A stretch of 64,000 bases of DNA, taken from positions 1 to 64,000 of the IMG/VR virus record IMGVR_UViG_3300031994_000101, one strand, 5' to 3'. The stretch comes from a virus. The translations under genes were made by a program, and so were the position numbers. Numbering within the stretch: position 1 is the first letter of the stretch; each line of letters begins with the position of its first letter. Below are positions 14,450 through 14,671 of the stretch, piece by piece. The notes under the pieces are model-generated. The model ran no database searches, was not told the DNA's origin, and saw nothing but the letters and a program-made list of their open reading frames with translations.

Positions 14450-14671
14450 ATGAGCAAAAAAGACTGCATTAAAAGTGAAGGTCAGGTAACCGAGTCACTT
14501 GGCTATGATAATTACCATGTTCATCTCGACAATGGCGTCACCATCCTCGCCACACTCTCTGGCAGGATGCGTCAGAACCATATCCGCATCGTGGCGGGCG
14601 ACCGCGTGGAGGTGGAGCTCTCGCCCTACGACCTCACACGTGGACGAATCTCATTCAGATACAATAGATAA
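14450..14671 (+). CDS. infA: translation initiation factor IF-1 homologue (S1-like OB fold)
   Basis: 73 aa, collinear similarity to bacterial IF-1: ..[55 protein letters not shown]. Confidence 0.85.
   Translation: [73 protein letters not shown]

Follow-up and report, generated by a model that had tools for sequence, protein, structure and literature searches.

A predicted translation initiation factor IF-1 of a divergent, phage-associated clade in a putative tailed phage of about 134 kb

Homologs of the bacterial translation initiation factor IF-1 have been reported from several groups of phages, namely, the Lak megaphages of Prevotella, for which Devoto et al. 2019 list a “prokaryotic initiation factor-1” (PMC6784885); huge phages, in which Al-Shayeb et al. 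2020 describe IF1 and IF3 as genes intercepting or redirecting host translation (PMC7162821); and the Jug phages, where a “translation initiation factor 1A” is among the 39 core genes (PMC12880540). Phage-borne IF-1, as a phenomenon, is therefore already published; our literature search found no functional study of a phage-encoded IF-1. To our knowledge, the phages known to carry the gene are larger than 200 kb, and its presence there has never been explained. The DNA analyzed here, referred to below as the window, is a stretch of 64,000 nucleotides (positions 1 to 64,000 of the IMG/VR virus record IMGVR_UViG_3300031994_000101) that contains the following gene:

14450..14671 (+), infA-like gene for a putative phage IF-1 with an S1-like OB fold (open reading frame, profile matches and AlphaFold2 model)

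The open reading frame (ORF), as read from the sequence, is intact from the ATG start to the TAA stop and encodes 73 amino acids; the translation is identical to the product quoted in the original prediction, including the 31-residue segment given there. That prediction, that the product aligns along its full length with bacterial IF-1, is borne out by profile searches against the IF-1/eIF1A family: the NCBIfam infA equivalog TIGR00008 is matched over positions 1-69 of 69 (E=1.3e-29, 102 bits, cutoff 61.15) and Pfam PF01176 (eIF-1a) over positions 2-64 of 64 (83.8 bits, cutoff 30.2). All 12 sequence matches of a phmmer search against the PDB are bacterial IF-1, aligned without gaps, the best being 4ql5 from S. 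pneumoniae (E=8e-22). In the Pfam scan of the 73-aa protein, the cold-shock (CSD, PF00313) and S1 (PF00575) domains were absent even at E<=1, and secondary matches to RsgA_N and RNase_II_C_S1 stayed under their cutoffs; the best matches are thus not to S1 or cold-shock proteins, because no CSD or S1 family scores above threshold. PHROGs already contains a phage family of IF-1-like proteins, phrog_30201, which the protein matches over its full length (E=2.9e-25); there, unlike the TIGR00008/PF01176 assignment made here, the family is not labelled as IF-1 but as “unknown function.”

From an alignment of 36 sequences, AlphaFold2 predicts with confidence a five-strand OB barrel (pLDDT 87.7; strands 7-18, 21-26, 31-36, 52-57, and 64-71) with a short helix, 38-42, in the beta3-beta4 loop. 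The top 10 Foldseek matches of the model are all bacterial IF-1 (target-normalised TM 0.76-0.98), and the best of them, free and 30S-bound IF-1 structures (4ql5, 3i4o, 9fco_I, and 1hr0_W), have TM 0.89-0.98 and rmsd 0.6-1.9 A; for 4ql5, 9fco_I, and 1hr0_W, the rmsd is 0.6-1.4 A. The 50 listed PDB matches comprise IF-1, then eIF1A/aIF1A, plus two RsgA/YjeQ entries, with no cold-shock proteins among them; given this list and the lack of PF00313 and PF00575 matches, a cold-shock or generic S1 identity is ruled out. Judged by sequence, the 73-aa product is a genuine IF-1 homolog.

At least 23 metagenome contigs, the longest of 134 kb, encode the identical IF-1 protein with the same neighbors; one of them is the IMG/VR UViG IMGVR_UViG_3300011989_000005 (134,182 bp). 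The window shares 98-99.9% nucleotide identity with these contigs, this UViG included, apart from some swapped cassettes, and among seven independent contigs of the same phage, the IF-1 gene has the same nucleotide sequence in six and shows a single difference in the other. On the UViG, a 609-aa protein encoded about 12-15 kb past the left edge of the window matches the head-maturation protease family phrog_53 (E=1e-35), and there are weak tail and virion matches besides. Some 45 proteins of the window and its flanks were scanned against PHROG and Pfam, mostly without a match; the protease is the sole strong virion marker, and none could be named as a terminase, portal or major capsid protein. 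The window additionally encompasses a diversity-generating retroelement (DGR) on the minus strand (3277-6547) that looks complete and functional:

3277-4470 (-), DGR reverse transcriptase
4510-4700, template repeat (TR)
4852-5532 (-), ORF
5653-5843, variable repeat (VR), at the 3' end of the target ORF 5654-6547 (-)

The TR and VR are 191 nt long and 91% identical, with 16 of the 17 mismatches at template adenines; the VR covers approximately the last 62 codons of the 297-aa target, which has a weak Fib_succ_major-domain match and is probably a receptor-binding protein. Together, the identity to the 134-kb UViG, the phrog_53 protease and the DGR support a tailed phage of about 134 kb as the replicon, in agreement with the original claim that the gene is phage-encoded. 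A megablast search of GenBank phages with the 10-20 kb part of the window produced no match; a close relative in culture is thus lacking. Besides the DGR reverse transcriptase, the window has recognizable genes for an IS-type transposase, a metallophosphoesterase, a radical-SAM protein and a Band-7/SPFH protein; when the encoding contigs were looked up, the exact products of a 384-aa ORF and of the reverse transcriptase were absent from the record.

The host is probably Prevotella or another member of Bacteroidales, in the rumen or gut. The hints come from a sister contig that was assigned to an NCBI “Prevotella sp.” MAG, from the relatives of the primase-like protein described below, which belong to Bacteroidota phages, and from the Pfam domains DUF4494 and DUF3127 on sibling contigs. 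The sample names and run accessions of the contigs presumably point to sheep and cattle rumen studies.

Compared to L001, L003, and L011, the region of about 15259-25791 shows mosaic cassette replacement in genomes that are otherwise 98% identical, with IF-1 invariant; for example, the siblings have a 160-aa exonuclease in place of the 240-aa one found here downstream of IF-1, and some genomes possess the Band-7 and radical-SAM genes while others lack them. The IS-type transposase ORF (60679-61824, +; phrog_506, 4e-90), in the region 59480-63942, lies beside a segment, 62332-63942, that is inverted relative to the sibling genomes L038 and L039, suggestive of an IS-associated rearrangement or an assembly join. 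Two large conserved ORFs, of 1069 and 387 aa, occupy 52373-56758 (+) and have no PHROG or Pfam match.

The IF-1 gene is located in a long plus-strand array:

9522..10454 (+), C5 cytosine DNA methyltransferase, first gene of the array containing IF-1 (PF00145, 116 bits; phrog_363, 3e-66)
10451..13951 (+), 1166-aa primase-like replication protein (sub-threshold CHC2 zinc-finger match, 20.5 bits vs 24.9)
13970..14428 (+), 152-aa Arg/Lys/Glu-rich protein (p152), directly upstream of IF-1 (30-61% identical in six IMG/VR relatives, which have it at the same place)
14425..14449 (+), IF-1 leader, A-rich and lacking a Shine-Dalgarno (SD) sequence, read from the sequence as ataaaaaaccaggacacaacgagat-ATG
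14705..14863 (+), 52-aa small protein (p52), directly downstream of IF-1 (64-92% identical and IF-1-adjacent in L014-L018)
14868..15590 (+), 240-aa Rv2179c-like 3'-5' exonuclease (PF16473, 61.3 bits, cutoff 27; phrog_255, 3e-24)

In a tblastn search, the primase-like protein shows 24% identity to the “DNA primase/TOPRIM” of Polaribacter phage Leef_1 and also matches Bacteroides phage BT-TP2. For p152, no family match was found in the PHROG and Pfam scans; over this gene, public metagenome callers give a minus-strand ORF of 84 or 130 aa (14048-14443) instead, probably a mis-annotation in the public records. The p52 protein produced only sub-threshold HTH-type Pfam hints and is possibly an HTH protein. 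The exonuclease is syntenic in relatives, at 52-72% identity. The original prediction placed IF-1 among replication and host-takeover genes; the replication part stands, with the primase-like protein, the exonuclease and the C5 methyltransferases, whereas host-takeover genes are not recognizable, the other neighbors being ORFans. The stop codon of p152 is separated from IF-1 by 21 nt and IF-1 from p52 by 33 nt, and the terminator scan detected no plus-strand terminator-like site flanking the IF-1 gene. Because of the 21-nt gap and the lack of a plus-strand terminator-like site between the genes, IF-1 is likely to be co-transcribed with the replication genes. A scan for sigma-70 promoters stayed at background level (8 found vs 5.8 expected), and the promoter scan found no enrichment of the Bacteroides-type TAnnTTTG -7 motif; promoter predictions therefore help neither with the operon structure nor with the host.

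The methyltransferase complement of the phage is unusually rich. Two C5-cytosine methyltransferases are confirmed by Pfam, and a third methyltransferase has PHROG matches only; a Dam-family ORF is seen on sibling contigs (also at about 49637-50128). The ORFs are:

9522-10454, methyltransferase ORF, the C5 enzyme that opens the array
41868-42830, methyltransferase ORF
43321-44946, methyltransferase ORF

This complement suggests a heavy investment in anti-restriction.

The translation initiation regions of the window fall into two conspicuous classes. The string AGGAGGACTGA occurs in eight exact copies on the plus strand, against 0.02 expected by chance, and in seven of the eight the next ATG is 4 nt downstream; the exception is 34868, where no gene begins at this distance.

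16057, 21379, 22466, 23740, 25792, 29154, 34868, 39642 (+), copies of AGGAGGACTGA
33861, 35059, 37605, 44963, gene starts with AAAAGAGCGAT-type leaders
17020, 20184, 23130, 26289, 39080, 57206, gene starts with looser forms of these leaders

The TGA within AGGAGGACTGA appears to be the stop codon of the preceding gene, so that the element resembles a stereotyped junction for translational coupling, complete with a perfect SD site. The second class, seen at many other genes, consists of A-rich leaders without SD, AAAAGAGCGAT-ATG or ..AACGA(A)TT-ATG, and the IF-1 leader belongs here; in mRNA form, a leader of the phage reads AAAAGAGCGAU-AUG and the junction AGGAGGACTGA-N4-AUG. Initiation in Bacteroidota is atypical and largely ignores SD sequences; a junction with a perfect SD is odd for a phage of a putative host from this phylum.

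A homolog search with the phage IF-1 yielded 1158 matches, the top 120 of which are 64-100% identical to the query and have a common signature of 52 residues. The resulting clade comprises more than 100 sequences, with identity to the query down to 63%; members on long contigs come from contigs of 95-178 kb, and every long contig inspected is phage-like. The order of primase, p152, IF-1, p52, and exonuclease is largely kept in the IMG/VR relatives L012, L014, and L016-L019, where IF-1 is 67-82% identical and the primase 37-66%. One clade member labelled “Prevotella sp.,” P0115, is embedded in the same gene module on a 115-kb contig and is therefore a binned phage rather than a cellular infA. 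The cellular infA homologs from GTDB genomes are 44-61% identical to the query; in L023, L025, L030, and L032-L035, rpmJ and rpsM are directly downstream, and map is upstream in all but L023. The phage gene is outside this map-infA-rpmJ-rpsM cluster, with replication genes on both sides (primase on one, exonuclease on the other), as expected for a viral paralog.

A neighbor-joining tree was constructed from 65 alignment columns of 110 distinct clade sequences and 37 cellular and other-phage IF-1s. The 110 clade sequences, a set chosen by similarity to the query, are separated from the 37 others by a single bipartition with a bootstrap of 135/200, in a tree whose cellular sample is small and Bacteroidales-biased and whose 65 columns cannot resolve deep branching. 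The window copy is 50-58% identical to the cellular IF-1s compared, and no clade member is more than 64.6% identical to any sampled cellular IF-1; by comparison, the Bacteroidales IF-1 is 73% identical to that of Firmicutes and 70% to that of E. coli. The donor lineage is not resolved because the mean best identity of the clade is 55-57% to sampled Bacteroidales, Firmicutes and other phyla alike. The phage IF-1 was compared pairwise with five relatives; dN/dS is 0.10-0.31 and dS is close to saturation, the pattern of a gene under purifying selection at the level of these comparisons. The original prediction had left the choice between recent host capture and a phage-specific clade to phylogeny; the coherent deep clade, the kept synteny, the purifying selection and the identity to cellular IF-1 of at most 65% favor a long-branch, phage-specific lineage over recent capture.

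To assess the ribosome-contacting residues, we relied on the roles established by NMR and modelling of the C. difficile IF-1, the numbering of which corresponds 1:1 to the phage copy (PMC10913371), and on the review of Gualerzi and Pon (PMC4611024). The residues contacting the 30S subunit are K39, R41, R46, Y60, R64, and R66 according to the former (PMC10913371) and Arg64 and Arg69 according to the latter, with the C-terminal Arg69 of E. coli IF-1 required for 30S binding (PMC4611024). Conservation was computed over 122 distinct clade sequences:

K39 in cellular IF-1, 530 loop contact: R in the phage copy, K/R in 97% of the clade
R41 in cellular IF-1, A1492/A1493 contact: R in the phage copy, 100% of the clade
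R46 in cellular IF-1, A1492/A1493 contact: R in the phage copy, 99% of the clade
Y60 in cellular IF-1, S12 face: Y in the phage copy, 100% of the clade
R64 in cellular IF-1, S12/h44 contact: R in the phage copy, K/R in 93% of the clade
R66 in cellular IF-1, S12 face: R in the phage copy, 100% of the clade
C-terminal Arg R70 (E. coli Arg69): R in the phage copy, 99% of the clade
Beta1-beta2 loop, 18-22 region, entering the h44 minor groove: L-(S/P)-N-A-M-F in cellular IF-1, L-G-Y-(D/E)-N-Y in the clade
Position 30: His in 90% of cellular IF-1s, Val/Ile in the clade, V in the window copy
Position 35: His in 73% of cellular IF-1s, Thr/Ser in the clade, T in the window copy
Position 42: Met in cellular IF-1, Gln in 89% of the clade, Q in the window copy
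Position 44: Tyr in cellular IF-1, His in 99% of the clade

The h44 loop of the window copy reads LGYDNY, as opposed to the cellular LPNAMF, and some sub-lineages of the clade have LSRDNF or LGGDRF. The inspection of host-ribosome contacts that had been proposed with the original prediction therefore has a split outcome: R39, R41, R46, Y60, R64, R66, and R70 are retained, whereas the h44 loop and positions 30, 35, 42, and 44 are altered. Retained anchors combined with a changed loop fit a protein that would dock in the A site with altered fine contacts. Several ribosome-facing positions are systematically changed, and therefore the binding mode, the affinity and even the target could differ; moreover, conserved basic residues would be kept by a generic RNA-binding OB fold as well, which counts against reading them as a sign of IF-1 function.

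With these reservations, we consider it reasonably probable that the protein is a functional IF-1 paralog of the ~134-kb tailed phage that binds the A site of the host 30S subunit, supplements or replaces the host IF-1, and sustains or biases initiation. Under this scheme, IF-1 would be expressed from the long plus-strand array of replication genes and would bind the A site of host 30S subunits like the cellular IF-1. The short helix, together with R39, R41, and R46, would be placed next to the 530 loop and the flipped A1492/A1493; S12 and h44 would lie opposite Y60, R64, and R66, and rRNA would be touched by the C-terminal R70. During infection, the phage factor would supplement or replace the host IF-1, and initiation would be kept going or biased toward phage mRNAs. 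Ribosome binding, the timing of expression and selectivity for phage mRNAs are the elements of the scheme that we infer. The same functional reading was previously put forward for the Lak and huge phages (PMC6784885, PMC7162821), which we count as support. The direct manipulation of host translation initiation envisaged in the original prediction would be consistent with the conserved contacts and the purifying selection. In about 100 kb of the phage (the window and neighboring pieces), we detected no tRNA and no translation gene other than IF-1; hence there is no wider “translation module” to back this reading.

The lack of other translation components in ~100 kb can also be seen from another angle. 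E. coli IF1 is said, by Croitoru in 2006 and Phadtare in 2007, to possess RNA-chaperone and antitermination activity, and the phage protein might act off the ribosome, melting RNA or promoting read-through in the replication or early operon of the phage. The gene indeed resides among enzymes of nucleic acid metabolism (the primase-like protein, the exonuclease and the methyltransferases) rather than among translation genes, and the ribosome-specific positions H30, H35, and M42, along with the h44 loop, have changed, the overall basic surface being retained. However, the IF-1 architecture is preserved without indels, including helix 38-42, the GD motif, SPYDLT.GRI, and the C-terminal Arg70; a cold-shock-type OB protein would suffice for such a role, yet the clade is firmly IF-1. 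We regard this possibility as unlikely.

The same remodelling, of h44-loop, 530-loop and S12-facing positions with the electrostatic anchors kept, is also the pattern of a binder with altered affinity, and an altered IF-1 could conceivably occupy the A site to shut off host translation or to protect initiation complexes from A-site-acting defence toxins such as mRNA interferases of the RelE/HigB type. In favor of the shielding variant, 30S-bound mRNA is reported as a substrate on which the A-site toxin HigB acts (PMC4931118). Such a role is, however, entirely speculative: a non-selective blocker would inhibit phage translation too, and no toxin/antitoxin context was seen near the gene in the PHROG and Pfam scans. 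We consider it quite unlikely.

Finally, a functionless, recently captured host infA or a cellular contig, which could be suspected from the “Prevotella sp.” labels of some clade members in NCBI MAGs and from the GC3 of 0.59 in the IF-1 gene versus ~0.8 in the large neighbors, is highly improbable and effectively refuted by the phage module around P0115, by the contrast with true cellular infA in its ribosomal-protein cluster, and by a deep clade, under purifying selection, that is farther from cellular IF-1s than phyla are from each other, with a prohead protease and a DGR on the contig as well.

Within the favored reading, that of a functional IF-1 acting on host 30S subunits, there is an outside chance that the factor has been re-engineered: with the anchors kept and the h44 loop and the 530-loop- and S12-facing residues rebuilt, it could alter the selection of start sites or mRNAs or resist an A-site defence. 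The basic N-terminal tails of sister lineages (see below), reminiscent of eIF1A, are cited as part of this proposal. If so, the factor could, for example, enable the unusual combination of strong AGGAGG coupling junctions with SD-less A-rich leaders in a putative Bacteroidota host, for which SD sequences normally play little part. In any case, an IF-1 that is deeply conserved in the replication module of a rumen/gut phage lineage apparently without other translation genes argues that IF-1 alone confers a selective benefit, and more than 100 variants with defined changes in ribosome contacts provide a tractable set for studying how viruses tune bacterial initiation, especially in Bacteroidota.

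The discovery is incremental, in that the concept and several examples are already published. What is new here is IF-1 as a conserved core element of a lineage of mid-sized phages (~95-180 kb), its occurrence without tRNAs or other translation genes in ~100 kb of phage, and a large, very divergent IF-1 clade with defined changes at contact positions. The Lak, huge and Jug phages (the latter of Bacteroides/Phocaeicola) encode IF-1 too, several of them being Bacteroidota phages, and there the gene is interpreted as a means to augment host translation or redirect it (PMC6784885, PMC7162821, PMC12880540). Their genomes, however, are 360-735 kb long and often carry many translation genes and tRNAs, in contrast to the ~134-kb phage of the window, with none seen in ~100 kb.

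A tblastn search with the phage IF-1 retrieves homologs of the Lak, huge and Jug type. Identity to the query is 46% for Lak-A1, 49% for DAC16, 46% for Phosso, 57% for LR756511, and 55-56% for the IMG/VR contigs L020-L022, and all these proteins are outside the clade; because they are both distant and external to it, phages appear to have acquired IF-1 several times independently. The L020-L022 contigs (52-170 kb) encode a distinct variant, MSKEDSLTLEGQVTEVLRNAMFRV..., and this lineage probably gained IF-1 independently, given that no rpmJ, rpsM or map is found beside the gene. Several sister IF-1s are extended at the N terminus by basic residues or accommodate ~26 aa of inserted basic sequence behind residue 8, such as MSKQDHIKAASKREQKKDRFHSAEHEQARGKAIK...; an extension of this kind, which recalls the N-terminal tail of eIF1A and the N-terminal extensions described for phage S21, is missing from the window copy.

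9781-10077 of L018, extended IF-1
~9923-10210 of L014/L016/L017, extended IF-1
627-932 of L123 (Bacteroides phage DAC16), extended IF-1
P0007-P0009, P0012-P0015, P0037, extended or inserted IF-1 proteins

The Bacteroides phages DAC15/DAC16 are cultured, with genomes of ~178 kb and a Bacteroidales host, and carry an unrecognized IF-1 homolog (DAC16_4, “hypothetical protein”); at 49% identity, the DAC16 protein differs from the window copy in its basic N-terminal extension of ~35 aa and in its location, at the genome end and in a different context. With the cellular bacterial IF-1 (4ql5, 1hr0_W, and 9fco_I), the phage copy has in common the length, the ungapped alignment, the five-strand OB fold and helix 38-42, along with the motifs GD and SPYDL.GRI and residues K/R39, R41, R46, Y60, K/R64, R66, and R70; the clade departs from the cellular factor by replacements at positions 30, 35, 42, and 44 and within the loop that inserts into h44.
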